IMG/VR virus record: IMGVR_UViG_3300026549_001681
DNA length: 64,000 nt
DNA from: an uncultured virus (IMG/VR IMGVR_UViG_3300026549_001681)
Lineage: Duplodnaviria; Heunggongvirae; Uroviricota; Caudoviricetes
Direction: 5' to 3' (one strand)
Under the pieces are notes generated by a model. That model was given only the letters and a program-made list of their open reading frames with translations, was not told where the DNA came from and ran no database searches. Positions 43,259 through 61,870 of this stretch are shown in pieces. The stretch's first letter is position 1. Every line of letters starts with the position of its first letter. Both the position numbers and the translations under genes were made by a program.

Positions 43259-43654
43259 TTACCTGGCATAGCCGAACACTTCGGGATCCAGATCATACAA
43301 AGACGCGTCAATACTCAGACCGTCTATACTATCTGCAAGTGCCGGTTCTTCAAACTGGTGTTCTTTAATCATTCTCATAACGAGACCGAATATCTCACGA
43401 CCGCCTGTCGCAAAACCGTGCTGATACGCGTTTAGATCTGACCGCGTACAAGTCTCGGCGCATTTTTGTACGGCAGTAAAGACGAATTCTTCGAAATCTT
43501 GTCTGCCTTCGGTCTCAAAAGTCTTGGCAAGAAGCTCCAAAGCCTGAACCTTGCCGTCTGAGTAACCGAGGTCAAATTTATAAGCAGTCTTTATATTATT
43601 CCTGGTTTGTATTTCCCTGATTAACGATGTGTCGATATATTCCTTGATTAGCAT
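43259..43654 (-). CDS. Hypothetical protein, YxxG(F/Y)xxG module family
   Basis: RBS before MLIKEY; AYQHGFATG. Confidence 0.65.
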   Translation of the reverse strand: MLIKEYIDTSLIREIQTRNNIKTAYKFDLGYSDGKVQALELLAKTFETEGRQDFEEFVFTAVQKCAETCTRSDLNAYQHGFATGGREIFGLVMRMIKEHQFEEPALADSIDGLSIDASLYDLDPEVFGYAR

Positions 43655-43762
43655 ATCAATACCCCTTCTGAAATAGTACAGGCCGCATGGCAATAAACCA
43701 CACGGCCGGCATAAGAAAGCGACTAAACTTTGTATGATAGTCGCTTATGAATAATTCTTTTC

Positions 43763-44197
43763 TTAGTGAGTAAAATGCTGTTGTTCTATCATTGCATAGA
43801 TATCATCAAGATCAGGTTGCTCGACTCCGGGAACATCCTGGTAGGGGATAGGCTGATCGAAACCGTTTAAGAGATACATTCCTTCATGGAGCTTAAAGCG
43901 GCGTTCTCCTGCCTGGGAAACATACTCGCTGAACATACCTGTACTTATTTTCTTAAAGCTCTTCTTTTCCATGGATCTCATATCATCGTAATGGATAACG
44001 TCAGTGGGATGTTCGGCCTTAAAAGCATCAACAAAATCCAAAGCCTCGTCAAGTTCCTTGAAAAAACGCTCTCCGCTTTCGGCAGCAGGGCTGCAATAGG
44101 GAACAAGGGTATCACCATCTTCTGTTAAAAATAAATGTACTTGATAAGCCTGTCGACCGAAAAGTATTCCATCATTCAATTTGATAACATACTGCAT
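43763..44197 (-). CDS. Hypothetical protein
   Basis: GGAGG RBS, 144 aa. Confidence 0.7.
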   Translation of the reverse strand: MQYVIKLNDGILFGRQAYQVHLFLTEDGDTLVPYCSPAAESGERFFKELDEALDFVDAFKAEHPTDVIHYDDMRSMEKKSFKKISTGMFSEYVSQAGERRFKLHEGMYLLNGFDQPIPYQDVPGVEQPDLDDIYAMIEQQHFTH

Positions 44198-44254
44198 AAT
44201 AATTCCTCCAAAAACTTAAAATCAGTGGGACGGTTGTTCATGTTAAAAATCCGT

Positions 44255-44437
44255 TTATCTGCCTAACCCACTTTGTTGAATATACTGCACAAACGAATCC
44301 GTGAGCGGTATCTCTCTGGTATAATCCTCGTTAAGCGGATCGTCCCAGATGAGAGCTCTTCACTCGTTACTCGCAGCGTTTGCAAATACTGCGCTATCTG
44401 ACATTCTCAGTGGCTTGTCATAGGATAATACCTCCAT
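44255..44437 (-). pseudogene. Interrupted ORF remnant ending SGLGR
   Basis: In-frame TGA followed by RALIWDDP..QQSGLGR*. Confidence 0.4.
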
Positions 44438-44443
44438 ACAACT

Positions 44444-44466
44444 AAAAGGCACCCGAAGGTGCCTTG
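44444..44466 (-). terminator. Intrinsic terminator after the kinase cassette
   Basis: AAGGCACC/GGTGCCTT stem plus T run. Confidence 0.75.
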
Positions 44467-44496
44467 TAACATTAGAGTTAACATGTTTTAAGAACA

Positions 44497-44775
44497 TTAC
44501 TTCTTGGGCCACTTGACGCCCGCAGCATCTTTAATGCCCTGGTAAACATAGTATTCTTTCAGTTCGCGTATACATTCTTCGGGTAAGATACGTTCACGAA
44601 GACACCAGTTCAAGTCACAGTTAAGTTCGGTTCTCAAACAATCGTCGAGGTACAGTATCTCCGGTTCGGTGCGCTGCTCATCATTGAGCCAATCGACCAA
44701 GCGGTCTATATCTTCTTGTACTTCGTTGGGAATGTCGTAATCGACTTTTAGTTTTTCAAAGTGGTACTTGTTCAC
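44497..44775 (-). CDS. Small acidic protein coupled to the kinase (candidate antitoxin)
   Basis: Starts 1 nt after the kinase stop, GGAGG RBS. Confidence 0.65.
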   Translation of the reverse strand: MNKYHFEKLKVDYDIPNEVQEDIDRLVDWLNDEQRTEPEILYLDDCLRTELNCDLNWCLRERILPEECIRELKEYYVYQGIKDAAGVKWPKK

Positions 44776-44776
44776 A

Positions 44777-45766: not shown

Positions 45767-45910
45767 GTCTTTCGTATCCTTTCTTATCTCTAAACAATTA
45801 TACCATTTATCTCAAAAGCTCAGGAGAGCAGAACGTATAATCCCAATCGTCAGGATAATTTTCTGCTCCCGGATGAGACTCTGTATCAATATGCAGATTG
45901 ACATTCTCCT

Positions 45911-46372
45911 TTATGCTCTTCCTAACCACTCAGGCGGAATCTCCAGTTGTCTCAAATGCTCTCTAACCACCATCAATATCTTACCAAGATTATTAGCGCC
46001 CTGTCCGTCGACAGTACCCCAGATGCGATCACCCCAAGTATTACCTTCTTCCAGGTAAGTGTCGCCGGTGTCAAGGAGCTTCCAGGCAAGTTCGGGGTTC
46101 TGAGTAAATTTAGCTTCGACTACGCCACGCATAACCTGAATCTTAATTTGTTCCCAATCTTTACGAAGCCGAATCTCGCGCCCGAGTTTCTTCGCCTCAG
46201 TAGGATTAAGCTTAGTGAACTTAGAGCGATCTTTCGGATCAATGCACTTCTGCGCTTGGAACGCAGCCTCATTATTATTATAGGTCAGACCTTCGAAAAC
46301 GACAGGCGCAACGTAGAAGTTGCTTAGGAACTCATATTTGCCTGTAAAGGAATCGATCTTATTATCTTTCAT
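45911..46372 (-). CDS. NADAR (YbiA-like) family protein, C-terminus LGRA
   Basis: FLSNFY, EAAFQAQK, AKKLGR..LRKDW, KFTQNP.L..LL.TG, D.IWG..G.N.LG.ILM.VR. Confidence 0.93.
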   Translation of the reverse strand: MKDNKIDSFTGKYEFLSNFYVAPVVFEGLTYNNNEAAFQAQKCIDPKDRSKFTKLNPTEAKKLGREIRLRKDWEQIKIQVMRGVVEAKFTQNPELAWKLLDTGDTYLEEGNTWGDRIWGTVDGQGANNLGKILMVVREHLRQLEIPPEWLGRA

Positions 46373-46527
46373 CAAGTTCATCCCCATTCTTGTAACTGAT
46401 ATCAATGAATTTAGGCAAAGAACCGAATTATATAAAACCCCAGGGTACCTGTATCATAACGTGTATATGTTAAATCGAGCAACAATAGATGATTGTATTA
46501 ACTTATACGAATATTATACAAAACACA

Positions 46528-47022
46528 TTAAGTCGTTTCAGCGGGCAAATACTCATCTCTTTGAGTCGTAACAAGGTATTGAATCAATTCGTCTTTGCAT
46601 GATAAAGCATTAAGAAACAGATATGTTTCAGGAAAAACATCTTGGATAAAATCAATCAAGTCATGGGTTTCAACGCTGTGTAATGTATTAACCGGAATTT
46701 CAATTTTCTTTAGCAAACCAGCTTTGTAGTATATTTCAAATGTCAATTCATTCCACGACTCATAAAATGAGGCAAAGAACATTTTTGCTTCTTTCAAATC
46801 TTTTACTCTGGCCGCAAATAAAACGGCATCTGCAAACTGATCGAATAAAGCATCGGTTCTACCATTAGCCCAAAAGTCAAGTTCCGGGAATCTTTTCCAC
46901 AACTTTCGGTCAAAACACATTCTCTGGTCAAAATCACATTCCCAGGTATGCCCATATTTTTGATAGTAATAATCTCTGCCAAATAGTGAACGGTTAGTTA
47001 TAGAAGTTATGGTTTCTTTCAT
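46528..47022 (-). CDS. Hypothetical protein, AT-rich
   Basis: 164 aa in a visibly AT-rich segment between the 34-bp repeats. Confidence 0.65.
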   Translation of the reverse strand: MKETITSITNRSLFGRDYYYQKYGHTWECDFDQRMCFDRKLWKRFPELDFWANGRTDALFDQFADAVLFAARVKDLKEAKMFFASFYESWNELTFEIYYKAGLLKKIEIPVNTLHSVETHDLIDFIQDVFPETYLFLNALSCKDELIQYLVTTQRDEYLPAETT

Positions 47023-47067
47023 ATCAGCGTTATTCTTTCTTCAACCTGATTCATTTCAGCTTCAGTT

Positions 47068-47988
47068 TTATGCTCTTCCTAACCACTCAGGCGGAATCTC
47101 AGTATAGTTCTCTTTCTGTCTGCCTAATTCCTCTACCACATCCATACCTGACTTTTCCATCCCGCCGGATAACTTGTAAGCACCAACCCAGGCATCATAA
47201 CAGCCAATAACAAAACCCTGATTATATTCGCTGCGCTGAGGTAAAGAAGATTGTTCTTTGAAATAGTCGACACGTTCTTTGATATAATTCGCAAGCTCGT
47301 CTCCTGACTTTCCCGAATCATTATTGGCAAGGGAAGAGTAGGTCTCAAAGCAGCCTTTGGCATATCCGTCCCAGTAAGCGTTTTTCTGAGGCTTATTTGA
47401 CTCGACATAGAAATAGGCTTTCCGCGCCATGACAAAGCCTTTCAGATTACCTTCAGCCATTGCTTTTTTAGCTGCATCAATACGAGACTGTTGTTCAAGC
47501 TGCTCGTCTATGAGCATATCTCTGGCAGGACCGGTTATATGGCCCTGAGAAGCCATCTCACGCGCTTTGTTGATTGCGGCGAATGATTTATCGTATTCCG
47601 CCTCCGCAGCCTGTATAAGCTCTTTGACGTGATCTGCAATGATATTCTGCCAAAGGTCGTTTTCTGCGATCTCACAATCCTGTCTGTTTTCAAACTCTGA
47701 AACAAGATGCTCATAGTTGATAGGGAGTGTATCCATGTTATAATGTCTGTCTTTTCGACAAATGTCACGACCGTCAAAGTATTCCTTGACCTGAGCATGT
47801 GCATCTTCGAGCATATATTCGTGGTCAACTTCGCGGAAGATCTGTTCTGCGGTCTTCGCATTAACAGCACCTATTGCTTTGGCAGCAACATCATACTCAG
47901 CCTGAGTCATATCACCTTGTCGAACCATTTCGTTCATTGTCTTAACGATTTCATTGTATTCGAGAAATTCTTTTACTCTATTGTCCAT
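47068..47988 (-). CDS. Modular hypothetical protein, C-terminus LGRA
   Basis: AGGAG RBS; shares modules with 50820 and 43259/50407/56861. Confidence 0.75.
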   Translation of the reverse strand: MDNRVKEFLEYNEIVKTMNEMVRQGDMTQAEYDVAAKAIGAVNAKTAEQIFREVDHEYMLEDAHAQVKEYFDGRDICRKDRHYNMDTLPINYEHLVSEFENRQDCEIAENDLWQNIIADHVKELIQAAEAEYDKSFAAINKAREMASQGHITGPARDMLIDEQLEQQSRIDAAKKAMAEGNLKGFVMARKAYFYVESNKPQKNAYWDGYAKGCFETYSSLANNDSGKSGDELANYIKERVDYFKEQSSLPQRSEYNQGFVIGCYDAWVGAYKLSGGMEKSGMDVVEELGRQKENYTEIPPEWLGRA

Positions 47989-47999
47989 GTTAAACTCCT

Positions 48000-48371
48000 T
48001 TACGCTCTTCCAAAGCCACTCTGTTGAAGGTCCAACACAGGAGCCTGATAAGGGGCAGGCTTCTCCATCCAGGCAATTACTTCAGGCTCACCGCTCACGC
48101 CGTTTACCATGAGCTTTCCTAACGGAAGCCATCTTCCCTCGTGGAATACCTGGTCTCTCGTTACAGATTTACCGTTAAAAGTGACGGTGACATAATAGAC
48201 ACCATCAGACTCCGGTTGTTTTTCACTGCACGGTGTCCAGTCCGGAGCTGGTGGGATATCATTGATAAGTTCTTCTAAACTGCCCATTTCACCATCTGGG
48301 CCGCAAATTATCCAACCAGCTTTCCGCAGTTCTTGTTTCAATGCACTGCGACTTATCTTGTTTGTATCCAT
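48000..48371 (-). CDS. DUF551-like protein, C-terminus FGRA
   Basis: WTPCSEKQP...VIAWM..P.PY. Confidence 0.7.
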   Translation of the reverse strand: MDTNKISRSALKQELRKAGWIICGPDGEMGSLEELINDIPPAPDWTPCSEKQPESDGVYYVTVTFNGKSVTRDQVFHEGRWLPLGKLMVNGVSGEPEVIAWMEKPAPYQAPVLDLQQSGFGRA

Positions 48372-48384
48372 GTTCTTTTCTCCT

Positions 48385-48780
48385 TTACACACCGCGCCCG
48401 AGATCTATTTCAGGCACTTTATACGGACTTGGCCAAGGCTGCCAAGCTATAACCTCGAAAGGTATCACGTCACCTTCGGCATCGTTCCAAGTCTCTCCGT
48501 CATAGCCGACGGGATAAGGAAGAACGGTTTCGAAGTCCTCCTGCGTTTTCCGATCCGTATCCCAGACAGTTACCATGCAGCCAAAAGCCTCTTTGGGCAG
48601 GCCCTCGGTTACGGGAGTCCAGTCCGGAGCAGGCGGGGCATTGTCGATTGCATAATTCAACAATGACCAAAGATAATCAGCGTCAGCTATAATTCCAACC
48701 TTTGTTGCTTGTGCAATATTTGAATTTATTGTCTCTTTCAAGCCCTCACGACTGATCTTGTCATCGTTCATAAGAATCAC
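48385..48780 (-). CDS. DUF551-like protein (tandem paralog), C-terminus LGRGV
   Basis: WTPVTEGLP...VIAWQPWP.PY. Confidence 0.7.
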   Translation of the reverse strand: MILMNDDKISREGLKETINSNIAQATKVGIIADADYLWSLLNYAIDNAPPAPDWTPVTEGLPKEAFGCMVTVWDTDRKTQEDFETVLPYPVGYDGETWNDAEGDVIPFEVIAWQPWPSPYKVPEIDLGRGV

Positions 48781-49340
48781 CTTCCTCGCATATTTTCAAT
48801 AAAATTCGAGGATAGCTCTTCATACACCGGAAGCAGGACTTGAGCCCACTCTTTCTGCTGCTTACCAAGCCCGGTAGTTGTGACAGTGCCAAGAGCCTTA
48901 TATACGCGTTCAATGTTCGTTATGCCGATTCCTGCCGCTTTACGCATATCGGCCAATACATCGGGTCTGTCCCTCATATCAATAGCGACTAAGGACTGCG
49001 GATCGACAAGTTCCTGCCAATCAAACTCACTTGGCAACTTGCGACACAAAGGAAGAAATCCATCGACCATATTGTCGCCGATGTTCCAAACATGGTATCT
49101 GGAGTCCGGTATCTTATCGACAATGGTAAACCTGTCAACACTTGACGCCAGCGGACTGTAATTTAAGATTTCTTTCTTGTCGGGACACTGAGCGTCAATG
49201 CCATCCATTGCCTCTGCAAAAGAGTCTGTGTATGCAATCGTCTGAGCAGGGGAGACGGGATCGTAAACACGATAGTGCTCACGTTCTTTGATATATTCGA
49301 CCATATAGCCTTTATAACCGAGTAAAACTGCATTGTTCAT
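48777..49340 (-). CDS. Hypothetical protein, C-terminus MRGR
   Basis: Start MNNAV after GGAGG. Confidence 0.65.
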   Translation of the reverse strand: MNNAVLLGYKGYMVEYIKEREHYRVYDPVSPAQTIAYTDSFAEAMDGIDAQCPDKKEILNYSPLASSVDRFTIVDKIPDSRYHVWNIGDNMVDGFLPLCRKLPSEFDWQELVDPQSLVAIDMRDRPDVLADMRKAAGIGITNIERVYKALGTVTTTGLGKQQKEWAQVLLPVYEELSSNFIENMRGR

Positions 49341-49648
49341 GACCAACCTCCGTAACTTTCTTAATGTGACTAACCTTAAAATCATAAGCTCCGACAGTGA
49401 AACAACCGGGTTTTCTGTAACCGTATAGAGCAGAAAAATCTTTGGTAAAACCAAGTGTGCCTTCAACCTTTTGGCCGTCATTAAATTCAACACAAACACG
49501 GGCTCCGACCAGTTTCATTAGTTTTTCTTTTTTCATAGTCGCATGTCTCCTGGATCCTTACATACCGCGACCACAAACATCCAGGCTTATTTCGGGCCCA
49601 TATTTTGCCTGTGCTACTGAACGGGATTTCCGTCTTTATAGTTGCTAT

Positions 49649-49927
49649 TCATACTGTTCGACCTCCTGTAAACAATCCTCGTTCCATAGTTTCTTTTGTT
49701 GCCGCAGATAAGAGCTCCATCCCGATAGCAATATGACCTATCTTGTCACTTAGCTCACTATAAGAAGCCCAGAAAGGCTCATAACCGCCTAACTTAGTTA
49801 CCAGCGGCTGATTGTTGACACCGTTCCAGAGTACGAGTACAGGGTAGGGCTTATTAGGACTGGTAACATATTCAATACTTTCATCAAGCATACAAATATC
49901 ACCTTCAGAAATCATATTTTTATCCAT
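49649..49927 (-). CDS. Hypothetical protein, C-terminus GGRTV
   Basis: GGAG RBS. Confidence 0.65.
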   Translation of the reverse strand: MDKNMISEGDICMLDESIEYVTSPNKPYPVLVLWNGVNNQPLVTKLGGYEPFWASYSELSDKIGHIAIGMELLSAATKETMERGLFTGGRTV

Positions 49928-49945
49928 ACTGTATCCTCCGAATAA

Positions 49946-50290
49946 TCATCGTCCCACATACTTTTCGGCTATAATCTGATTCAAGTCGACATTGACTTCG
50001 AGCGAGTAATCATGACCGTAAGCGCCGCTTTGAGTGAAATGTATGCTTTCTGCCTCACCGCGCCAGACAGCGTCAGTGATCTTGACGCTGATATATTGCA
50101 GTAAATCAGAACTTGCGCAGAAAATACCTATATTAGTAAGCTCTTGCGAAATATCTCCTGAGATATTTCGATAACTTAAGTCTTTAGCAACATTGTCCCG
50201 CAAATCTTTGTCCAACTCAGCGAACTTAGAACAGCTCGTAAAGTCTCCTGAGAGATGCGTATTGAGTATATGTCCGTGAACTGTAATCAT
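49946..50290 (-). CDS. Hypothetical protein, C-terminus VGR
   Basis: AGGAG RBS. Confidence 0.65.
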   Translation of the reverse strand: MITVHGHILNTHLSGDFTSCSKFAELDKDLRDNVAKDLSYRNISGDISQELTNIGIFCASSDLLQYISVKITDAVWRGEAESIHFTQSGAYGHDYSLEVNVDLNQIIAEKYVGR

Positions 50291-50406
50291 AAGCTGCTCC
50301 TTATCTCATAGGCGTATCGGGAATAGTAAGCTCAATGATAGGGTAGAGGGGAGCATCCGAAACATTGAGATAATCCGCAAGGTAGCAAGTACCATAAAAG
50401 TTCTCC

Positions 50407-50802
50407 TTATCTGCCCAAGGTTGCTGCCATGTACTGCTCAGGATCATACTTACCGTCGTCAACAAGATTTATCAGGTCTTCGTTACCGATAGCCCTTAAT
50501 GCAGCCTTATAAACGTCTTTCTGTCCGGAGTAATAACCGGCAGAGTTGTCATCGAGATCGGGAGCGGCTTCCTTATCCTTAGACATCATATAGCACTCTG
50601 CGATAAAAGCCGGCATGATGGACTCGCCCTTGGCCTTAAGTGTCGCACCGATAAAATCCCAGGCGTCTCGGCTACCGAAGCACTTACCGATCCACCATTC
50701 GTCAGTCTGTTGATGTCTTTCCTTATCGAAATATTTAGATCTGTCTAAAGCGAGCTCCTCTAAAGTGTTGATACCAACAAAAACCTTGTGTTTAATTTCC
50801 AT
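50407..50802 (-). CDS. Hypothetical protein, C-terminus LGR
   Basis: GGAGG RBS. Confidence 0.7.
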   Translation of the reverse strand: MEIKHKVFVGINTLEELALDRSKYFDKERHQQTDEWWIGKCFGSRDAWDFIGATLKAKGESIMPAFIAECYMMSKDKEAAPDLDDNSAGYYSGQKDVYKAALRAIGNEDLINLVDDGKYDPEQYMAATLGR

Positions 50803-50819
50803 AGTTCTTACCTCCGTTA

Positions 50820-52099: not shown

Positions 52100-52708
52100 T
52101 TATGCTCTGCCCATTGAAGTAGCAGTTAACTCACACAGTTGCTGATATATCCTTCCGGCTGAAAAGAGCAGTTCGTTGTCATCGAACATCTCGGCTTTCT
52201 GGTCTGAAAAATAGTCCATTAACGGGCTTATTCCTCCGAGCTCCTGATTTGCTGTGCCATCAAGAACCCGGTGTATCAGATAGCGAACCTCAGATCTTTC
52301 TGCCACACAACGCTCAAGTGTCGTCGAGTCTGCCTCGCGGTAACGATCATTACGTTCTAAGACTGGAGCGATCCAGCGGATCCGATCTGCTTTTGGGACA
52401 TCATATTCGCCACGCAAATACATAAAAGTTTCAATTTCGTTTGCAAGTTGTGCAAAGGGAGAAGAAGTAACATATTTTCCGTCTAACAGGTCTCTTGCAA
52501 AGGCCTTCAAATCATTGGTGTCAACAATCGACGGACGACTAAAATACTTAACCACGTTCTGCTGAATCTCCGATTTATCATCTTCGCTAAGAATATACGG
52601 AGTCTTGTTGTGTATTTCATGGTTCTGTTTGCGTATGTCAACTTGCCTTTTGACATATTGTTGAACAGTTTCTTCTCGGTGGGGAGCAATGGAAAAATAA
52701 CTCAACAT
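52100..52708 (-). CDS. Hypothetical protein, C-terminus MGRA
   Basis: AGGAGG RBS, 202 aa. Confidence 0.7.
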   Translation of the reverse strand: MLSYFSIAPHREETVQQYVKRQVDIRKQNHEIHNKTPYILSEDDKSEIQQNVVKYFSRPSIVDTNDLKAFARDLLDGKYVTSSPFAQLANEIETFMYLRGEYDVPKADRIRWIAPVLERNDRYREADSTTLERCVAERSEVRYLIHRVLDGTANQELGGISPLMDYFSDQKAEMFDDNELLFSAGRIYQQLCELTATSMGRA

Positions 52709-52723: not shown

Positions 52724-53563
52724 TTATTGACTCCTGCCATTGTTCAATGTGATTGTTGGTGGGATGAAGGTCTTTGCTATATGACCTACAATGTCCACAT
52801 AACTTAAGTACGCGCTGAGCTCCATGTAACAACCCTTGTCAGAGTGCATCGGTCCGTCGGTCGGAACACAAAGACTGCAACTTCTGGCACCTCTTCCGGC
52901 GTACGCATACGCTTCGTCAGGAAGCGCCTTCGGGTAGAGATAACCCTGGTATTTCATTTCCTGTGCGATCTTTACAAGTTCATCTCTGCAATCTTTGGAT
53001 AGCGAAAAAGTATTCTCGATAGAAAACTGCTTTTTCTTAAACCCGATGTCTGTTACATCCAAAGCCAGATAGAACGGGGACACACTGAGCTGTGAAGTAA
53101 GAAATCCGTCTAACTCGGCTGCGCCACGCATACCGCTTTCCTCGTTCCCGGTAAAGGCGACAATGACATTATCCGGCAGGGCGCCTGTCATCATGAGATA
53201 TAATGCTGCGGCATTAGTTGCTGAGTTATCAAAAGTACCGTGCAACATATTGTCTGTGGCAGAGACTTGGACAAACGGTTTTCTTATATTCTTAACGAAA
53301 TCTATATGTGTCGATATGACCAGAAGATTTTCACGGGGCAGGGAAGACAGAGACATTTTTGAATAGAGCCTTACCAACTTGCCTTGCAGACCGTGCTGAT
53401 AATATGGTGTTTTAGCAAGCAGCTGGTGGATCCTGTCGAGCTTCGCCGTCTCAGTAAACTTCTTTCCGTTGTCATAGCAAGGTCGTTGCATCTCCTGGAG
53501 AACATACAACTTGTTTTGAACTTGCTTCGTATAATCGTCCACAGAATAGCTCCTTATAATCAT
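52724..53563 (-). CDS. M28/M42-like Zn peptidase, C-terminus GRSQ
   Basis: STHID, GTFDN, FTGNEESGMRGA, LDVT, MHS. Confidence 0.75.
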   Translation of the reverse strand: MIIRSYSVDDYTKQVQNKLYVLQEMQRPCYDNGKKFTETAKLDRIHQLLAKTPYYQHGLQGKLVRLYSKMSLSSLPRENLLVISTHIDFVKNIRKPFVQVSATDNMLHGTFDNSATNAAALYLMMTGALPDNVIVAFTGNEESGMRGAAELDGFLTSQLSVSPFYLALDVTDIGFKKKQFSIENTFSLSKDCRDELVKIAQEMKYQGYLYPKALPDEAYAYAGRGARSCSLCVPTDGPMHSDKGCYMELSAYLSYVDIVGHIAKTFIPPTITLNNGRSQ

Positions 53564-53779: not shown

Positions 53780-54073
53780 TCATCTTATTCTGCCGTGTTT
53801 AGACATAAGTTCCTGACAGATAGACTCAAGATCAAATATGGGAGAAGCATGTTCCTCGTCAGTACATAACCATTCGGCAATTCTATCTGAAGCCCGATCG
53901 GCATCGTTTGAATCAACAAATCGCCCGATAGTCACGGTGGGATTATTGGAGCTGGTACCGACACTCCTGACGGCAAACCTCTTGTAATCAGAGCCGTCGA
54001 TAGAATCTATCGAGATGTCGAAAACATTGTCCATGTTCACGATGGTGCTGCCATATCTGATGTATCTGTTCAT
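53780..54073 (-). CDS. Hypothetical protein, C-terminus HGRIR; paralog of 58923
   Basis: AGGAGG RBS. Confidence 0.7.
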   Translation of the reverse strand: MNRYIRYGSTIVNMDNVFDISIDSIDGSDYKRFAVRSVGTSSNNPTVTIGRFVDSNDADRASDRIAEWLCTDEEHASPIFDLESICQELMSKHGRIR

Positions 54074-54107
54074 AATATTTCCTCCTGGAATTTAATATTT
54101 CTTGTGT

Positions 54108-54566
54108 TTAGGCTCTGCCTTGACGTGATGCTATGAATTCATCGAAGCGCTTCTTTTCATCTTCCAAATTGCCTATGTATCCATAGTCACGCTGGTATGC
54201 TTCGATCTCTTCTAACGTGAAGAGCTTTTCCATAACGTGGGGGGAAATGCGATAAGCAGGATAAGTCACAAATCCGCTTGTTTTCTGACCTCCGATAGGG
54301 AAGGCGAAGCAATTATCCTGTAAGAACTGCTCTACACGAGACTCGTTGTTAACGTCAGGAAAGAAGCAGCCGTATTGTCCGACAAACTCACCGAAGCTCC
54401 TGGTGAGATCTGTATAATATTCACCGTCCGGTGTTTCAAGCCAAAGACCAATCAAGTGCTTTTCTTCGCCCCTCCAATCGGCAACACCGTAGAAACCGCC
54501 TTTGAGAAGCAGTTCAGTGTCATCGTATCTAACCTTGATGGAATTTCTTTCTTCGCTCATTGACAT
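54108..54566 (-). CDS. DUF4313-like protein, C-terminus QGRA
   Basis: GEYY.DLT, DVNN..EQFL..N, SGFVTYP.Y. Confidence 0.7.
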   Translation of the reverse strand: MSMSEERNSIKVRYDDTELLLKGGFYGVADWRGEEKHLIGLWLETPDGEYYTDLTRSFGEFVGQYGCFFPDVNNESRVEQFLQDNCFAFPIGGQKTSGFVTYPAYRISPHVMEKLFTLEEIEAYQRDYGYIGNLEDEKKRFDEFIASRQGRA

Positions 54567-54579
54567 ATCCTCCCGAAAT

Positions 54580-54742: not shown

Positions 54743-54768
54743 CCGGGAAGAGCGGGTGAGAGGGGGCG

Positions 54769-55788
54769 TTACTCATCAAATCTCACCACATTACGATGCT
54801 CTTCTTTCCGTTTATCAGAAAAACTTGCATAGTGGTTTTTCGTAGTTGATATATCCTGATGTCCCATGTTTTCCGCGACAAGATATATGTCGCCTGTTTC
54901 CTCATAAAGCCTGGTCGCAAAAGTAGCCCGGAGCTTATGAGGAGTAATGTGTTTTCCGGGAAGGGAAGATGCAGCGTATTTTTTCACGAGACGCTCGATA
55001 CTCCGCACGGAAAGTCTCTTTTTCTGACTGGAAACGAATAAGGCTTTTTCATTCTCATCAAGACCTTCCAGATTATTACGCCAGTCGAGATAGTCGACAA
55101 GGTAAGGAGAAGCCTCGTCCGAAAAATACACGATGGACTCGTTGCCGCCTTTTCTGGTGATGTAAATACAGGAGCGGTTCAAATCAACGTCGTCGATATC
55201 CAGTTCAGAGCACTCAGACACACGGATTCCGGAAGACAAAAGCAAATAAACAATGGCGAGGTCACGGATTGACTGGATCTCGTAGTATTCGCGTTCTTTC
55301 TGTGTCATAGATCTGTGACCGTGAACAGCTGACAAAAAACAAGAAGTCTCATCCTTATCCATCTTGATTATGGGCTTCTTGGGACATTTCGGCTGCGGTA
55401 TCTTGCCGACCTCGTATGTCGAGATCAGGTCATTCTTGAATAAGTAATTAAAGAAAGATTTAAGGGCAGAGAGTTTTCGTGACAGGGAACGGCGGTCATT
55501 GGAAACCTCACCCTTGTCCGACTCGTAGTGTTCCAGATATTCGAGATAATCTTCGAAGTTCTCCTTACGGAGTTTTTCGAGATCAGACAAATCAACCTCG
55601 TCAAGAGAAAATCTGTCAGAAACATAATCCAGGAATTTTTTTATGTCGAGTGTGTATTCGTAATTTGTTCTCGGCGAACTTCTGTGATGGATCGCACGGA
55701 TGTACGACCTGACATAAGATGGCAAAGTGTCAAGCATCGCGTTACATTTGTCCTGGTATCTGATCTGAACCTGTTTGTGTCCGCTCAT
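54769..55788 (-). CDS. XerC/XerS-like tyrosine recombinase
   Basis: RKLSALKSFF.YL, RDLAI..SGIRVSE, RKGG, ITPHKLRATFAT.LY, GH.DI.TT..HY. Confidence 0.92.
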   Translation of the reverse strand: MSGHKQVQIRYQDKCNAMLDTLPSYVRSYIRAIHHRSSPRTNYEYTLDIKKFLDYVSDRFSLDEVDLSDLEKLRKENFEDYLEYLEHYESDKGEVSNDRRSLSRKLSALKSFFNYLFKNDLISTYEVGKIPQPKCPKKPIIKMDKDETSCFLSAVHGHRSMTQKEREYYEIQSIRDLAIVYLLLSSGIRVSECSELDIDDVDLNRSCIYITRKGGNESIVYFSDEASPYLVDYLDWRNNLEGLDENEKALFVSSQKKRLSVRSIERLVKKYAASSLPGKHITPHKLRATFATRLYEETGDIYLVAENMGHQDISTTKNHYASFSDKRKEEHRNVVRFDE

Positions 55789-55823
55789 AGTTAAAAATCG
55801 GTCCTTTCTGAAAGAGGTGTCAC

Positions 55824-55859
55824 TATCTTGTCGTTTAACACGTATTAAGCGACAAGATA
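55824..55859. promoter_or_regulatory. dif-like recombination site
   Basis: 15-bp arms TATCTTGTCGTTTAA / TTAAGCGACAAGATA (1 mismatch) around a 6-bp spacer CACGTA, just upstream of the recombinase. Confidence 0.75.
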
Positions 55860-55972
55860 ACCCTTATTCCCGACAACAGAGATCGTTCGTATCCTGCTCT
55901 GCATCATTTGAACCAAATAAAAAGCGCCTCGTTTCATCAACAAGGCACTTAAAATCGGCTGAAACCCTTGAT

Positions 55973-56593
55973 TTATAAGGGCTTTTTCTTCCAAAGTCCG
56001 AATATGGACCTAACATAAGAATTCTTCTCCTTGTCGAGTTCATTTTGGATTCTGACCTTTTCTTCGGCCAACGAATTCTTTTCCGCTTCCAATCTGGCTT
56101 TCTCTCTGATCCAGTCGGTCTTTTCCTGCTCCAAGGCGCTCTGCTTCTCTTCGAGCTGTTCAACCCGGGCGGCTTTTACTTCAAGCACCGCGACCTTGGC
56201 AGTAAGCTCTGCGTCTCTATTTTCAAGGCTTTCCTTAGTGGCAGTAAGCATTTTGAGTTGCGTCTGAGCCTCTATTCCGACCTTGTTCTCTTCTTGTAAA
56301 TTAAGGAGCTGGTCCTGAAGCAGTGCGATCTTTCTTAAAAGTTCTTTGTTCTCTGACTCAAGCTGCTCATTTCTTTCCGTCTTACTCTGTATCTCTTCTC
56401 GCGAACTTACTATGGCAGCTGACGAAGACGATCTGTGCTCATCCAAGTAAGCAACGGCATAGTCATCAAGGAACCTGGTCCTGTACTGTGACATGATGTG
56501 TCCTTCAAGAGCATCCTTGTGCTTATCAACCTGTCTTCTGACACACTCATAAGACACTCCTCGTTGTGTTGCATAATCACTAAATGAAAGCAT
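55973..56593 (-). CDS. HTH + long coiled-coil DNA-binding protein (pSK1 Par/KfrA-like architecture)
   Basis: SDYA.QRGVSYECVRRQV HTH, ~130-aa heptad region, FGLWKK end. Confidence 0.65.
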   Translation of the reverse strand: MLSFSDYATQRGVSYECVRRQVDKHKDALEGHIMSQYRTRFLDDYAVAYLDEHRSSSSAAIVSSREEIQSKTERNEQLESENKELLRKIALLQDQLLNLQEENKVGIEAQTQLKMLTATKESLENRDAELTAKVAVLEVKAARVEQLEEKQSALEQEKTDWIREKARLEAEKNSLAEEKVRIQNELDKEKNSYVRSIFGLWKKKPL

Positions 56594-56609
56594 TGTCTCT
56601 CTCCTTACT

Positions 56610-56860
56610 CACAAATCATTGTGTTATTTTGCGCTATATATGTGTGTCTTTCACAACACTATGACACAACCATAACATAATCGCAAAAGTATTGCAATTA
56701 CAAGGCGGTGTCAAAGTGGCACAACTTCTAACACACACAACTTGTGCCACGATTTTGTGAGCATATAGGATCAGTGATTGTGCATCGGACACAAAACAGA
56801 GTGCAACAAAATCAGTTTCACAACACTGTCGCAAAACTTGTGCCTGACGCACACAACTTG
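56610..56860. repeat. Large CACAAC/GTTGTG motif array
   Basis: Many CACAAC/CACAA/TTGTG copies directly upstream of the HTH-coiled-coil gene. Confidence 0.8.
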
Positions 56861-57907
56861 TTATGGATAAGAATGACCTTCCATGTCGATGCCTCTCTCT
56901 CCGAAAACGACACTGATGGCCTCTAACTCCTCGTAACCGTACTCCATCTGACGACGAATCTCATAACCGAGCTCAAGAGCATCCTCTTCACCAATCTTAT
57001 ATTTATCTCTAATGTACTCTGCGGTACAACAAGCCTCATAATAACTGTGAAGTTCTACCAGCTCCCCGGTGCTCAGTTTTACTCCGTTTACAGTAACGTC
57101 AAACAGTGTCTTGTCACTGATATTTACCTCGGTTATTGGTGTGTTCTCAGGAGGAACTTGTTCTGTCGAATTAACAAGACTGTGTTCCATTAACTGAGAA
57201 AGTGTATACTTCTCAGTCATTATTTTCTGAAGATAAACAATAGCTTCTACAACCTCATTCTCTGATTTTTTGAACGAGTCACCACCAGTCATCCAGATCT
57301 GCATAGGCAACTCGTTCGAAGATGTAGCCAGGCCAAGGCAGATCTTGGCGGCATACGCCTGTCCTGCAAGATAACCCTGTTTATACTCCGCCGACCACGA
57401 TGTTGACTTGACAGTGTCCGTATTGTTCCGAATCGCATTGACCGCTTCAACCAGATAATATTTGACAGTTGCCTTAAACTGAGACTGCCTTTCTGCCGTC
57501 TTTATTTCCTCGTAAAACATCAATAAAGCATCGGAACATTCGTTAACAAACCCTTCCTCATAGGAAGTAGGACCATACTTTTCAGCAGCTTCAGATTTCA
57601 GATTTGCCCATCGCTCAGCACTTCTCTTGATATTTGAAAGTAACTCAGTACAAGGAAACCTGTCAACGTCCTGTGCCTTAATGTCGCTGCCAAATCGTCC
57701 AAGAGAGTTTGTAAAGTCCGCTAAAGTAGCAATGTCATTTCCGTCAATGTCAGGTGATACTACCGAGACATAACCCATAGTGGAATCATCAGGCGAATCC
57801 GATGATACACGCACCATAGCATCGTAACGACGGAACAATAATGCTATTCTTTCTTCCGCGTTCTTGATATCCTTGTAAGGCTTTAAGAAAAAGTTGATCT
57901 TGCTCAT
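56861..57907 (-). CDS. Modular hypothetical protein
   Basis: GGAGG RBS; SYEEGF, EYKQGYLAG modules. Confidence 0.75.
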   Translation of the reverse strand: MSKINFFLKPYKDIKNAEERIALLFRRYDAMVRVSSDSPDDSTMGYVSVVSPDIDGNDIATLADFTNSLGRFGSDIKAQDVDRFPCTELLSNIKRSAERWANLKSEAAEKYGPTSYEEGFVNECSDALLMFYEEIKTAERQSQFKATVKYYLVEAVNAIRNNTDTVKSTSWSAEYKQGYLAGQAYAAKICLGLATSSNELPMQIWMTGGDSFKKSENEVVEAIVYLQKIMTEKYTLSQLMEHSLVNSTEQVPPENTPITEVNISDKTLFDVTVNGVKLSTGELVELHSYYEACCTAEYIRDKYKIGEEDALELGYEIRRQMEYGYEELEAISVVFGERGIDMEGHSYP

Positions 57908-57924
57908 AAGTACACCTCCAAAAC

Positions 57925-58458
57925 TTATCTTCCGATCATACTGTCACAAATTATTACGCCATCGGAACAGGCTGCATCATAAATGCGCTGTCCATCCTCA
58001 TCCGGCGAATACATTTCAAGAAACGTATTGAAGGTCGATGCTTGAGTCAGCATATCGTTCCGGTGTTCTTCCCAGAACTTAAGAAGCCAAGCCGCAGGCA
58101 CAACGAAGTTGTCTTCAGCTATGACATCGCCGGCTTCGTTATATGTGTTATGTTTATTGAGTTCGTATTCACATTGGATACGACTGATTTCTTTGTGAGA
58201 AAACGCAATTCCGGACGCTAAGAGAAATTGTGTCACCGTAAGATATTCGTCAGACGGACTAAACAATAATGACAAAGTAGAAAGAACATTAGCATCTGAC
58301 AATGTTTTCGGAGCAACTCGTTCCAATCTGTCCTGCTCGCGGAAACTTAATGATCTTTCCAGCAGAAACACTTCATGATATTTCCTGGCAAAATCCTCTT
58401 CACCCGGAAATGTCGCAACCTGGTGTAAAACCTTTATTTCTATATCGGTCATAATCAA
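57925..58458 (-). CDS. Hypothetical protein, C-terminus IGR
   Basis: 177 aa. Confidence 0.7.
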   Translation of the reverse strand: MIMTDIEIKVLHQVATFPGEEDFARKYHEVFLLERSLSFREQDRLERVAPKTLSDANVLSTLSLLFSPSDEYLTVTQFLLASGIAFSHKEISRIQCEYELNKHNTYNEAGDVIAEDNFVVPAAWLLKFWEEHRNDMLTQASTFNTFLEMYSPDEDGQRIYDAACSDGVIICDSMIGR

Positions 58459-58910
58459 GACCTCCCTAACTGCTCAGCGATAGAATTCTGTATGGCAGTT
58501 ATAAGATGCGGAATATGTGTGTATTTTTGTCCGCCTTCCAAAGTATAAGCAGCCATTGTAAGATCTTCTGCGAGCCTGTTTAAGTCGCCCTTCTGGTACT
58601 CAACCAAGATACAGTTATACAATGTGTAAGATGGTTGTGTTGTGCTCGGCTCCTCACCTTTGTGAAAAAGACTTGCATCAATAGAAAAAGCCTTACTACC
58701 CTTATTGAGCATAAAGTGGGCATTGTCGAATGTTCTATACATCTCTTGGGCAAGAGAAATCAATCGTTCAACATCAGCAGGCATCTGGAATCCGGCGATC
58801 ATGCAAGTTAGTTCGACGTATTTCTCCTTGGCAGATTCGAAGGCTGCGTTTTGCTTTTCTTCGTAATTAACATTGAATATAGTATTTCTGCGTTCCATTG
58901 TCATAGTCAC
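58455..58910 (-). CDS. Hypothetical protein, C-terminus LGRS
   Basis: 151 aa, GGAGG RBS. Confidence 0.7.
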   Translation of the reverse strand: MTMTMERRNTIFNVNYEEKQNAAFESAKEKYVELTCMIAGFQMPADVERLISLAQEMYRTFDNAHFMLNKGSKAFSIDASLFHKGEEPSTTQPSYTLYNCILVEYQKGDLNRLAEDLTMAAYTLEGGQKYTHIPHLITAIQNSIAEQLGRS

Positions 58911-58922
58911 CTCCGAACACGA

Positions 58923-59219
58923 TCAACTTTTGCCGCGAGCCGAATTAAGCTCAACACTCAAATGGTCCATATTGAAAATCCTTGTATCACCCTTGTTGAG
59001 CCAATCCCCAAACTCCTTAAAGGCCGTTTTAGCAACATCTTGAGAAGTAAAAAAACCGACACGTTCGGGTTTGCCATCGTATTCGAACCCCAACGACCAA
59101 CAGTTGCCTAAAGCCTCACCCGGCTCGATCCGGTCAGCAGCCTTTTCAGGCGGCATAAGATATATTCTGTCAGCCTTATCAACATTCAATAATTGTCCGT
59201 GATAAAAAACAAAAGCCAT
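58923..59219 (-). CDS. Hypothetical protein, paralog of 53780
   Basis: Y.G..(L/V)N.D...G.F...WL...IF pattern. Confidence 0.7.
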   Translation of the reverse strand: MAFVFYHGQLLNVDKADRIYLMPPEKAADRIEPGEALGNCWSLGFEYDGKPERVGFFTSQDVAKTAFKEFGDWLNKGDTRIFNMDHLSVELNSARGKS

Positions 59220-59222
59220 ATT

Positions 59223-59747
59223 TTAAGACCTCCCTCTGTTACAGCACTGTTCCCAAAGAGAGCAAAGTTCACTGTATCGCATATCGCTGTTGTTTCCGTA
59301 AAAAGGCTTCTCATAGTCAAAGTCTTCATATCCACAAGCCTTGAGGTCAGAGATCATCTTTTCAGAGTTCTGTCTGCGATCGAACTTATCATCTGTCTGT
59401 TCCAATTCTTTTAGTGTCAGGCCAAACTTGTCCAGATACTCTTGCGTGCAAGAACCGTCCTCGACATCAACTGTTACATAGAATTCCGCTATGTCACACA
59501 ACGTAGGATCATCTAACTCACTATCAGCACGCTCTGTCAGAAAGTTCTTGATCTTATCATCGGAATCCAATCTGGTGATTACCGCTTCAGAACTGTTGCT
59601 TCCGCCGAAAGGCCAGAAAGATACCCACGTCTCATCATCCAGTGTGAGCTGACGCCCGCGTGCGCTCATCTGACGCTGGATCTCTTCTCCCGTAAACAAC
59701 CAGCGGTATTCGTGTCCGTAGTGAGTCTGCATTACTCCGTAAACCAT
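59223..59747 (-). CDS. Hypothetical protein, C-terminus RGRS
   Basis: Start MVYG after GGAGG. Confidence 0.7.
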   Translation of the reverse strand: MVYGVMQTHYGHEYRWLFTGEEIQRQMSARGRQLTLDDETWVSFWPFGGSNSSEAVITRLDSDDKIKNFLTERADSELDDPTLCDIAEFYVTVDVEDGSCTQEYLDKFGLTLKELEQTDDKFDRRQNSEKMISDLKACGYEDFDYEKPFYGNNSDMRYSELCSLWEQCCNRGRS

Positions 59748-59761
59748 ATTCACCTCCAAAT

Positions 59762-59823
59762 AAAAAAGCCCCGTCAAAAACAGGGCAATAAAAAACGCAG
59801 AAACATCATCTCTGTCTCTGCGC
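59762..59823 (-). terminator. Tandem intrinsic terminators
   Basis: Same layout as 54580-54641 (hairpin-TTTTTATTGCC-hairpin-TTTTTTATTT). Confidence 0.7.
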
Positions 59824-59845
59824 TAAATCTTTAAGAAACATAGGG

Positions 59846-60052
59846 TTAACAGAACCTTGCAGCCATAGCTGCATTAGCATAAGCCATCTTTCTGAACCTT
59901 GTAATGTACTTATTAGCCTCGCCCTTGGTACTGCCTTCAAACTTCGGAAACGCATCGAAGCGATATTCTTCCATGGTGCGTATAAAATCAGCCTGCTTTT
60001 CTGTCATCGGCTCTTTCATCCAAGCCTTTGCGTCAACAACGAGTTCCGACAT
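59846..60052 (-). CDS. Hypothetical protein
   Basis: MTEKQ..FI...TKGEA..YI motif; AGGAGG RBS. Confidence 0.65.
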   Translation of the reverse strand: MSELVVDAKAWMKEPMTEKQADFIRTMEEYRFDAFPKFEGSTKGEANKYITRFRKMAYANAAMAARFC

Positions 60053-60079
60053 AACAACCTCCTGAATAACAGAGGTTTG

Positions 60080-60220
60080 CACACAAGGTTATTATCGCGA
60101 AAATATGTTCTTAACACAACAGTTGTGAGGTGTTTTTGAGAAAATTTGTTCGTCACAACCAAAACAGTCACAACGAATTTTGTGTTGTAACAACATTTGA
60201 CACAAACAGTTGTGACAACT
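60080..60220. repeat. CACAAC/GTTGTG motif cluster
   Basis: CACAACAGTTGTG, CACAAACAGTTGTG and further CACAAC copies. Confidence 0.75.
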
Positions 60221-60624
60221 CAATATATAAATCCGGCTCCTGCAAACATACCCGCACAAGTCAGGTCGAACACGACACGGAGATCGTCTAAAACATACGC
60301 CTTCTGATTGTGTTCAAGTCTCTGAAGCTCGTCTTGTCTAATCGTTGTCCAACGGTTCCTGGTTATCTCGGAACACTTATCCGTGTCAAGAGTAAAGAAA
60401 TGCACGGCAACGTCATTTATGGCGCTGCATATCATGTTGAAACCGGTATCCGCATCGATGCTTCCGTTGTCCCAGAGCCACAAAAACAGGACATTTATGA
60501 TCTGCTCTGCATAATCGTGAAACGGATCACGGGCACTGAGGTTAACGTATTGGGCACAACTCTCATACAACTTCTTTGTAAACGAGTCCGCCTTTGACAA
60601 AACTTCTGCATAATAGTCAGGCAT
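60220..60624 (-). CDS. Hypothetical protein
   Basis: 134 aa, AAAGGA RBS. Confidence 0.65.
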   Translation of the reverse strand: MPDYYAEVLSKADSFTKKLYESCAQYVNLSARDPFHDYAEQIINVLFLWLWDNGSIDADTGFNMICSAINDVAVHFFTLDTDKCSEITRNRWTTIRQDELQRLEHNQKAYVLDDLRVVFDLTCAGMFAGAGFIY

Positions 60625-60730
60625 AAGAATATCCTTTCACATTGGGGATAAGCGGGAGTTTTCGGGACGGTCACAACAACATTGTGTCAGACACAATCAT
60701 TACTCGCAACCCGCTATAACAAACAAATAA

Positions 60731-61024
60731 TCAACTTTCCGTAACTCCGGTAAGATCATCTTTTTTCAGTTGCTCCATAAAAGTCAGCTCGTAAAACTCG
60801 GTGCATCGCCACATCTTTACGACGCGTCCTGTATAAGCGTCAGGAGCGTCTCCGACAGCCGAGACTAACTTTTCCTTGGCAAGTTCTATCAAACGCAGAG
60901 AGACGGCATTACAGCCCGTATCAGCGTCGCAACCGCGTGCTTTCATTTCCTGACCTATCTGCATGGCAGATAACGGACCTTGCTCCTTTAACACGGTCAG
61001 AATGAGTTTGTCAAAATCAGACAT
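60731..61024 (-). CDS. Winged-helix DNA-binding protein
   Basis: IL.VLKEQGPLSA.QI..VS.RL.EL..LV..TGR. Confidence 0.65.
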   Translation of the reverse strand: MSDFDKLILTVLKEQGPLSAMQIGQEMKARGCDADTGCNAVSLRLIELAKEKLVSAVGDAPDAYTGRVVKMWRCTEFYELTFMEQLKKDDLTGVTES

Positions 61025-61037
61025 TGTAAGAACCTCC

Positions 61038-61130
61038 TTAGAAGCCGAAGATGAGTTTTACGCATCCGAATACCACAAGCGTCAAACCTAAAGCCAGTAA
61101 AACGAGCATTGTCATAGTTCTTTTGCTCAT
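61038..61130 (-). CDS. 30-aa membrane peptide
   Basis: MSKRTMTMLVLLALGLTLVVFGCVKLIFGF, AGGAG RBS. Confidence 0.5.
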   Translation of the reverse strand: MSKRTMTMLVLLALGLTLVVFGCVKLIFGF

Positions 61131-61332
61131 GACAAGGTCTCCTTAAACTTTGTGGCCGAGCGGACACTTGCCCGCCTGAATGGCGCGAAGGCAAGGAAGC
61201 TGCATCTCGGTACAAATGGACAATCCGCCCAAGACCTGATGTTTCGGGCAATGCTTTACGGCATCGTTTACTATATAGCGCTGATCCCGTCTGGTGATCT
61301 TGCCGAGTTCCGGATTTTCAGGAATAGTCATA

Positions 61333-61839
61333 TCAGTTACCTCCTCTGCCAAGCGTTTCCCTTATAGCAGCTTCAAGGGCTCCGTCTGTTAAGAGCTTGT
61401 CAGATGTAAAACGCGGAGTATGAACACCGCTGCCACTCTCATGAATGAAAGTTATCCAAACATTAGCACCATTACACTCCGGCACGAAGTTATCGGGATA
61501 GCCATGCTCCGTAAGGCTCTCTTCGTCGACTCGAAATCCGACGAGTTTTGTAGCAGGATCCATAATCATAGAATAAAAGCGATCATCACGGTCAATATCA
61601 GAAAACTCTCCGTCACCAATATAGTCAAGGCCTGCGTCAAGGCATCGGTACATGACATGGTCCTGCCATTGTCCGGAAAGTTCACCGTTTTTGTGAGTGA
61701 ACTCGTCACGTCCCTGAGACTCAACCTCAAGATAATTACCGTCCGCAGTCTGAAAGATCAGGTGATCCAAGCAAGTAGGAAAGACGTCGTCTTTTTGTAC
61801 CGTGATGTTAGTTTTAAGTGAATAATCTACATTTCCCAT
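61333..61839 (-). CDS. Hypothetical protein, C-terminus LGRGGN
   Basis: Start MGNVD after GGAGG. Confidence 0.7.
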   Translation of the reverse strand: MGNVDYSLKTNITVQKDDVFPTCLDHLIFQTADGNYLEVESQGRDEFTHKNGELSGQWQDHVMYRCLDAGLDYIGDGEFSDIDRDDRFYSMIMDPATKLVGFRVDEESLTEHGYPDNFVPECNGANVWITFIHESGSGVHTPRFTSDKLLTDGALEAAIRETLGRGGN

Positions 61840-61870
61840 AGTAATTACCTCCAAATACAAGTGATTTTCC

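Follow-up and report, generated by a model that had tools for sequence, protein, structure and literature searches.

An integrative conjugative element with a shared C-terminal tail

The DNA analysed here (the window) is a 64,000-nucleotide stretch of an uncultured virus record, IMG/VR IMGVR_UViG_3300026549_001681, which bears nearly all of its genes on the minus strand and among whose proteins Pfam and NCBIfam recognised the parts of a Gram-positive integrative conjugative element (ICE). We describe a short C-terminal tail, namely Gly-Arg followed by zero to three residues (the GR tail), that is shared by the relaxase of this ICE and by many unrelated small proteins encoded with it. The ICE parts and one very large protein are as follows.

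274-1737: tyrosine integrase (Pfam/NCBIfam)
7601-8650: sigma-like factor (Pfam/NCBIfam)
8705-12370: cell-wall hydrolase (Pfam/NCBIfam)
12452-15148: VirB4-type ATPase (Pfam/NCBIfam)
15148-15528: PrgI-like protein (Pfam/NCBIfam)
17310-19205, minus strand: VirD4-type coupling protein, 631 aa, the candidate receptor, without a GR tail and with the C-terminus KKKRKKAA
21679-22533, minus strand: short MobA/VirD2-type relaxase, 284 aa, tail FTGRGV (Pfam/NCBIfam)
29959-30702: sortase (Pfam/NCBIfam)
32877-41885: 3002-aa protein, labelled an adhesin by the original prediction

From ~43 kb onward and past the window end, small genes are packed tightly into an array whose products include NADAR, DUF4313, an M20/M28-like peptidase, a HipA-like kinase, an Xer-like recombinase, and an HNH nuclease. 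A metagenome locus, L030, is identical to the window over 19,229 nt and extends it by 1788 nt; near-identical fragments of the window occur in the nearest genome, G001, and a relative with 64-89% protein identity is carried by G522, a Clostridiales metagenome-assembled genome.

The original prediction, made from the window sequence, had listed 22 open reading frames (ORFs) with a Gly-Arg end. Translation confirmed that each of them terminates in Gly-Arg plus zero to three residues, with the single correction that the ORF at 7251 lies on the plus strand, and it also bore out the two decayed frames with such an end. Besides the relaxase, the tagged genes and remnants are as follows (SD, Shine-Dalgarno sequence).

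2433..2669, minus strand: 78-aa ORF, tail YRGRGGV; GR codons abut the next SD (GGTGGAG)
4043..4321, minus strand: 92-aa ORF, tail NIGRAA; GGGAGG is also the next SD
4857..5228, minus strand: 123-aa ORF, tail LLGRS; 50-nt gap to the next gene, no SD nearby
7251..7424, plus strand: RHH_1 (CopG-type) protein, 57 aa, tail KLGRI; RHH_1 E = 6e-7
29448..29966, minus strand: 172-aa ORF, tail NTGRSPF (translation)
45911..46405, minus strand: NADAR protein, 164 aa, tail IPPEWLGRA, gained via a 3'-end swap
47068..47988, minus strand: 306-aa ORF, tail IPPEWLGRA; final 34 nt equal those of the NADAR gene
48000..48392, minus strand: 130-aa ORF, tail GFGRA; paralog of 48385..48780
48385..48780, minus strand: 131-aa ORF, tail DLGRGV; paralog of 48000..48392
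48777..49499, minus strand: ORF, tail NMRGR; GR codons are the next SD
49649..49927, minus strand: 92-aa ORF, tail TGGRTV (translation, family clustering)
49946..50290, minus strand: 114-aa ORF, tail YVGR (translation, family clustering)
50407..50802, minus strand: 131-aa ORF, tail TLGR (translation)
52100..52708, minus strand: 202-aa ORF, tail SMGRA; three orthologs, all ending GRA
52724..53563, minus strand: M20/M28-like peptidase, 279 aa, tail NNGRSQ; ortholog end NEGRNQ, codons GGT CGT vs GGC AGG
53780..54073, minus strand: 97-aa ORF, tail HGRIR (translation)
54108..54566, minus strand: DUF4313 protein, 152 aa, tail RQGRA (Pfam)
57925..58458, minus strand: 177-aa ORF, tail MIGR (translation, family clustering)
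58455..58910, minus strand: 151-aa ORF, tail QLGRS; GGGAGG is also the next SD
59223..59777, minus strand: 184-aa ORF, tail NRGRS; GGGAGG is also the next SD
61333..61860, minus strand: 175-aa ORF, tail TLGRGGN (translation, family clustering)
44255..44359, minus strand: decayed gene remnant ending QQSGLGR, stop codon at 44255-44257; the intact 142-aa gene in the related array L009 ends VQQSGLGR
49558-49640, minus strand: decayed gene remnant ending CGRGM, stop codon at 49558-49560

Pfam supported the NADAR, DUF4313, and RHH annotations that had been given to tagged proteins. The peptidase annotation is weaker, because M28 scored 23.5 bits, above its cut-off of 21.3, while M20 scored 24.1, below its cut-off of 24.6; the proposed DUF551 was absent from the Pfam matches at E<=0.01. 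For most tagged proteins, scans against NCBIfam and PHROGs yielded no function. The 21 tagged proteins from the minus strand are free of transmembrane-like segments and no longer than 306 aa, whereas such segments occur in 14 of the 58 untagged ones. A sortase or membrane sorting signal was accordingly rejected (a transmembrane segment in 0/21). As had been claimed, the integrase, Xer, sigma factor, sortase, adhesin, and kinase have no GR tail, nor do VirB4, VirD4, and PrgI; the untagged set comprises all parts of the type IV secretion system (T4SS) and, further, the HNH nuclease.

Enrichment and reading frame

Gly-Arg lies within the last seven residues, with zero to three residues then remaining before the stop, in 22 of the 80 translated window ORFs. 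Host-like DNA of the nearest genome (20 x 20 kb; 400 kb) served as the background, in which 6 of 390 ORFs (1.5%) have such a tail, consistent with a GR dipeptide frequency of 0.33%. The enrichment over host-like ORFs, a check that the original prediction had called for, was thus borne out (Fisher p = 1.4e-13), and in the array at 45911-61860 as many as 16 of 31 ORFs are tagged (Fisher p = 5e-16). Chance was rejected as a general explanation.

The tails might instead be a nucleic-acid by-product, with the last codons shaped by the next ribosome-binding site or translational coupling, together with recombination at cassette junctions, and with a functionless peptide. Such an origin is favoured by the GR codons of seven of the 22 tails (2433, 4043, 48777, 49649, 58455, 59223, and 61333), which touch the next SD. 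The enrichment nevertheless persists when these seven are removed (15/73; Fisher p = 6e-9) and is therefore not due to overlap with ribosome-binding sites. Moreover, the tails at 4857, 21679, 29448, 47068, and 54108 have no SD close by and are separated from the next gene by 27-164 nt. When the pattern GGN-(AGR or CGN) was scored over the last seven codons of minus-strand genes, it stood in frame in 21 of 79 genes and in the other two frames in 3 and 2, even though the distance to the stop varies from zero to three codons; in gene bodies, the same pattern is commonest in frame +2 (187 vs 53 in frame). A frame-independent RNA motif was rejected, and so was stop-codon reassignment, since all three stops occur after tails.

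Motif grammar and selection at the protein level

Among 43 tails, the distance from GR to the stop is zero, one, two, or three codons in 9, 18, 12, and 4 cases, respectively, and never four or five, although these distances were allowed. Of these tails, 34 have a residue after the Arg, which is Ala, Ser, or Gly in 28; a hydrophobic residue (L, M, I, V, F, or A) precedes the Gly in 25 of the 43. Every one of the four Gly codons is used in the tails, as are five Arg codons, with a shift toward GGG, AGG, and AGA (GGG, 26% vs 6% in gene bodies; AGG, 26% vs 15%), which accords with a by-product and which we attribute to the minority of tails that overlap an SD.

Clustering of the 124 coding-strand proteins of the window and of two related arrays, L009 and L032, gave 92 families. 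Every member has the GR tail in 24 of them, while 3 contain both tailed and untailed members. Among the families with several members, G-R is present throughout ten and wholly absent from ten others. Between orthologs, a hand count found at least 12 nucleotide differences inside the G-R codons, as in GGC AGG vs GGT CGT, GGG AGG vs GGT AGA, or the individual changes AGG to CGT and GGG to GGT, but zero amino acid changes. The flanking residues do vary (QLGRS to QMGRA, MIGR to IAGR, and NNGRSQ to NEGRNQ). Purifying selection therefore acts on the G-R residues and not on a nucleotide signal, in agreement with the earlier claim, made from codon variation, that conservation is at the protein level, for which the in-frame bias also speaks. 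A scar of cassette junctions would be hard to reconcile with these data, because the tail codons vary synonymously and the flanks have no similarity across tails.

One ortholog pair differs at the motif itself: the window gene at 59846-60082 (minus strand) ends AAMAARFC, and its counterpart in L032 (3327-3563) ends AALAGRCY, a possible case of tag gain or loss in progress.

The relaxase tail

A 64%-identical ortholog of the window relaxase in G522 ends VIGRS. Sixteen short relaxases (46-99% identity) were aligned. They share a conserved nuclease domain and a conserved small C-terminal domain, after which comes a hypervariable linker with indels. The proteins then end with a hydrophobic residue, followed by G (11), S (2), N (2), or K (1), and by an Arg that forms an invariant column (16/16), with one to four residues after it (exactly one in 12/16). 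That this Arg is invariant down to 46% identity is a further point against a nucleic-acid by-product. The AlphaFold2 model of the window relaxase has a mean pLDDT of 61; residues 190-250 are confident, whereas residues 255-284 have a pLDDT of 30-36 and no secondary structure.

Other ICE families of the same order have longer relaxases (450-490 aa; 35-39% identity), of which 2 of 28 have GR and which mostly end in Lys/Arg-rich runs, e.g., KKKHRF, RKQNRH, and ERRLRR. A tblastn search of plasmids with the relaxase gave a best match of 42% identity and none spanning 80% of the query, and a class-level search with relaxase profile A2 found, besides G001, only long relaxases of another type. We also considered whether, in each ICE, the tail of the relaxase has been copied to the cargo proteins. 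A control ICE gave no support for this idea, as basic tails (net charge of at least +3 over the last 10 residues) occur on 3 of 31 of its proteins compared with 34 of 390 in the background, which is no enrichment.

Lineage specificity and a transplanted tail

The GR tail was followed into other arrays and into a second ICE, as follows.

L009 (G522:C30): related array, peptidase 74% identical; GR tails in 10/21 coding-strand ORFs
L032: related array, Xer 70% identical; GR tails in 12/22
L034: compact array, Xer 51% identical; GR tails in 0/18
L035: compact array, Xer 44% identical; GR tails in 0/40
G522:C6, 170-245 kb: stretch with a second ICE in the same genome as L009 (VirD4, relaxase 39% identical); GR tails in 1/73

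L009 and L032 also contain GR-tailed families that are absent from the window. As judged from these comparisons, the GR tail is specific to one ICE lineage, and the equally compact control arrays that lack it (L034 and L035) speak once more against a by-product. Homologous proteins fit this distribution. The tail is found in none of 120 NADAR homologs of 65-97% identity, so that NADAR homologs outside the lineage lack it, the original prediction having called for a check of non-ICE homologs; among DUF4313 representatives, it is found in 2 of 64, one being a 98%-identical fragment of the same lineage, and thus in 1 of 63 homologs outside the lineage. The nearest DUF4313 relative outside the lineage ends FDEFIASRGV, whereas the window protein ends FDEFIASRQGRA.

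The NADAR gene records how a tail was acquired. Its product is 97% identical to P0001 up to residue 157 and differs beyond it, and its last 10 codons plus the stop are an exact 34-nt copy of the 3' end of the gene at 47068-47988 (45910-45943 equals 47067-47100), a repeat that stops one base beyond the stop codon. Cargo therefore gains tails by 3'-end recombination, and this transplant shows that the tail is portable in evolution. A 19-nt junction, GGAAGAGCATAAAGGAGAA, occurs four times, and both it and the 34-nt repeat would be expected of a by-product of junction recombination; such recombination may account for the spread of the tail, but not for the retention of G-R.

A further repeat lies within the array. 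A 75-nt direct repeat (83% identity) is present at 51339-51413 and 51847-51921 (minus strand), with the first copy spanning the final 24 codons and the stop of the gene at 51339-51944 (tail ELFHTR) and the second lying in frame directly after the stop of a 54-aa ORF (51922-52086). It looks like either a paralog broken by a premature stop or a second duplicated 3' end.

In searches for further relatives, the protein at 52100 had no matches in 399 scored genomes of the class, a peptidase search of genome contigs returned one locus only, the protein at 57925 had one homolog in a 5.8-billion-protein set, and two scans of viral contigs found no relatives.

A candidate address label for conjugative protein delivery

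On this evidence, the selected, disordered motif at the extreme C-terminus of these unrelated soluble proteins, which the relaxase family of the element also bears, is very probably a tag that is read by one common partner. As that partner we favour, tentatively, the T4SS substrate receptor, because (i) the relaxase must be recruited by the T4SS receptor, (ii) published T4SS signals are disordered extreme C-termini with a critical Arg and critical last residues, and (iii) conjugative T4SSs co-transfer plasmid proteins, aided by positively charged C-termini. The tail would then be a short linear motif, consisting of a hydrophobic residue, Gly (Ser or Asn in some relaxases), Arg, and zero to three mostly small residues, and would act as an address label that brings proteins to the VirD4 coupling protein, directly or via an adaptor. 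The relaxase would bear the label because it needs export together with the DNA; the accessory proteins (NADAR, DUF4313, peptidase-like, RHH, and many of no assigned function) would be labelled for delivery with or ahead of the DNA; and new cargo genes would gain the label through recombination that replaces their final codons. It is a slightly more speculative step to propose that this Gram-positive ICE lineage loads about half of its accessory proteome into the recipient with the relaxase by means of a minimal, portable C-terminal label, the load comprising 20 or more small, soluble, mutually unrelated proteins, NADAR and other likely anti-defence enzymes among them, and captured genes being made injectable by recombining a neighbour's last ~10 codons.

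Several properties of the tail match those of T4SS signals. It is placed at the extreme C-terminus, with zero to three trailing residues in 43 of 43 tails, and is disordered in the relaxase model (pLDDT<50); its Arg is conserved in 16 of 16 relaxases and in every member of 10 cargo families; and the relaxase, which bears it, is itself a known T4SS substrate. The overlap with SDs does not offer an equivalent account of the tails, given the 7/22 overlapping cases, the frame counts of 21 vs 3 and 2, and the enrichment that remains without these cases. The tail resembles the positively charged C-terminal T4SS signal and might be a minimal version of it.

Other observations weigh against export through the T4SS. 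Each tail has a single basic residue and a low net charge, and specific recognition seldom relies on a core of two residues, while known T4SS signals are longer and have several basic residues. The cargo array is separated from the relaxase gene by ~20 kb, and the lineage sample consists of three independent arrays only. The purine-rich codon lean and the seven SD-overlapping tails point to an RNA-level contribution for a minority of tails. On the receptor side, VirD4 residues 212-347, which lie between Walker A and Walker B and which we take to be the all-alpha, substrate-recognition domain, have a net charge of -3, vs -9 to -12 in several other lineages, and so lack an obvious acidic docking surface; further, the VirD4 of this lineage has the basic C-terminal tail KKKRKKAA. 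VirD4 proteins outside the lineage, from genomes of the same order, have acidic last 20 residues in 14 of 19 cases, and the long relaxases there mostly have Lys/Arg-rich ends; the GR lineage pairs its basic VirD4 tail with a near-neutral relaxase tail, a pattern which suggests that the pairing of relaxase and coupling protein is charge-complementary and varies by lineage. A complex prediction of VirD4 88-631 (21-row alignment) with NADAR 120-164 scored 0.00 and 0.01 against a mark of 0.32; this was a 'no answer' and was counted neither way.

A second copy of the presumed recognition segment is encoded inside the cargo array.

61871..62464, minus strand: stand-alone paralog of VirD4 residues 212-347, 197 aa; 53% identity, E = 4e-43

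This protein matches the NCBIfam entry 'VirD4-like, CD1115 family' at 2e-13, is missing from L032 between the same flanking genes, and might serve as an adaptor or decoy or be a relic.

Two other uses of the tag were weighed against recruitment to the T4SS. The tail could be a degron, a role that the original prediction had also raised, such that a host or ICE protease reads the Gly-Arg end and keeps the relaxase and the accessory proteins short-lived, so that they act transiently around transfer. A short C-terminal tag on unrelated soluble proteins, ending a low-confidence or variable sequence, would suit this role, as would the peptidase-like protein encoded in the array, and the logic is that of the ssrA-type degron, a short C-terminal peptide with an LAA end that is added by tmRNA to unrelated proteins and read by one machine. 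The GR tail differs from ssrA tags, however, in that it is written into the genes themselves, includes an Arg, and is confined to a single ICE lineage, and its ends (R, RA, RS, RGV, etc.) have a composition unlike the non-polar, LAA-like end of ssrA, which ClpXP reads. Moreover, a tag that differs among ICEs of the same host genus, and even of the same genome, is not what a degron read by a host protease predicts, and GR tails occur at chance level in host-like genes (6/390). The peptidase-like protein is itself tailed and belongs to an exopeptidase-type family rather than an AAA+ protease family, and the benefit of adding a degron to captured genes such as NADAR is less obvious. We consider degradation an unlikely role for the tail.

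Docking without export, in which the tail binds another hub of the ICE (a chaperone or adaptor, the relaxosome, or the VirD4 212-347 paralog) for co-localisation or regulation on the donor side, shares the same statistics with recruitment to the T4SS and is about as improbable as degradation. The free-standing VirD4 paralog in the array would provide such a hub, and the RHH protein is tailed, RHH proteins often being relaxosome accessories. However, the VirD4 paralog is missing from L032, where the tails persist; family searches of the window proteins gave no candidate hub; and enzymes like NADAR have no obvious reason to join a donor-side complex. The nucleic-acid by-product, by comparison, is largely refuted by the frame and ortholog data above, and we regard it as very improbable.

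Relation to known translocation signals

The closest parallel to T4SS recruitment by the GR tail is found in the Agrobacterium VirB/VirD4 signals (of, e.g., VirF and VirE2), which are likewise located at the extreme C-terminus of unrelated proteins, disordered, and Arg-requiring; in VirF, deleting the last one to three residues (Arg, Gly, and Leu) abolishes transfer (PMC8740702). The Agrobacterium signals differ in having several Arg over ~10-20 residues, in being Gram-negative, and in being experimentally proven, whereas the GR tail has one invariant Arg after Gly in the last 2-5 residues, belongs to a Clostridia ICE and ~27 unrelated families, and is known from sequence alone. The X-Tfe effectors of the antibacterial T4SS of Xanthomonas, which carry the XVIPCD, also have a short, Arg-containing extreme C-terminal end: their last few residues usually hold Arg, hydrophobics, and Ser, loss of the last six residues blocks translocation, and the partner is the VirD4 all-alpha domain (PMC8740702). 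X-Tfe proteins, however, need a folded ~100-residue domain upstream, whereas the GR tails, on 27 separate families, follow no shared domain.

Conjugative T4SSs are described, in work on proteins of the F-like plasmid pED208 and on the 'conjutome', as carrying many plasmid-encoded proteins besides the relaxase, and cloned, positively charged C-termini as generally supporting transfer (PMC8406263, PMC11288057); spread of the signal through recombinational shuffling with relaxase genes has been proposed (PMC11288057), and the NADAR tail event resembles such shuffling. The hosts there are Gram-negative and the passages of these sources define no common motif, whereas here a stereotyped motif marks the candidate substrates. 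Full-text term searches of the literature, judged by title and the start of the abstract, turned up no account of Gly-Arg ends that tag proteins in a Gram-positive conjugation system.

Should the tail prove to be an address label for the T4SS, Gram-positive conjugation would have its first protein-translocation signal defined by sequence, and a simple, sequence-only rule would tell which ICE proteins enter the recipient. Conjugative elements would then pre-load recipients with helper or anti-defence proteins instead of awaiting early gene expression, and a tag of at most 10 residues would be of practical use for delivering proteins from one anaerobic Firmicutes cell to another. Were the tail a degron or some other docking motif, it would still be a rare, lineage-specific short linear motif, shared by at least 27 unrelated bacterial families and spread by 3'-end recombination.

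Other genes of the element

Two ORFs are placed between the relaxase and VirD4 genes.

19871-21652, minus strand: 593-aa ORF
19195-19857, minus strand: 220-aa ORF

Neither has a match in Pfam, NCBIfam, or PHROGs, and both are candidates for relaxosome or adaptor functions. An Xer-like tyrosine recombinase lies in the middle of the array in the window (54769-55788, minus strand), in L009 (4167-5183), and in L032 (6509-7528). It is kept in all three arrays of the lineage with 70-84% identity, and it may serve in array shuffling or dimer resolution, or may belong to a nested element.

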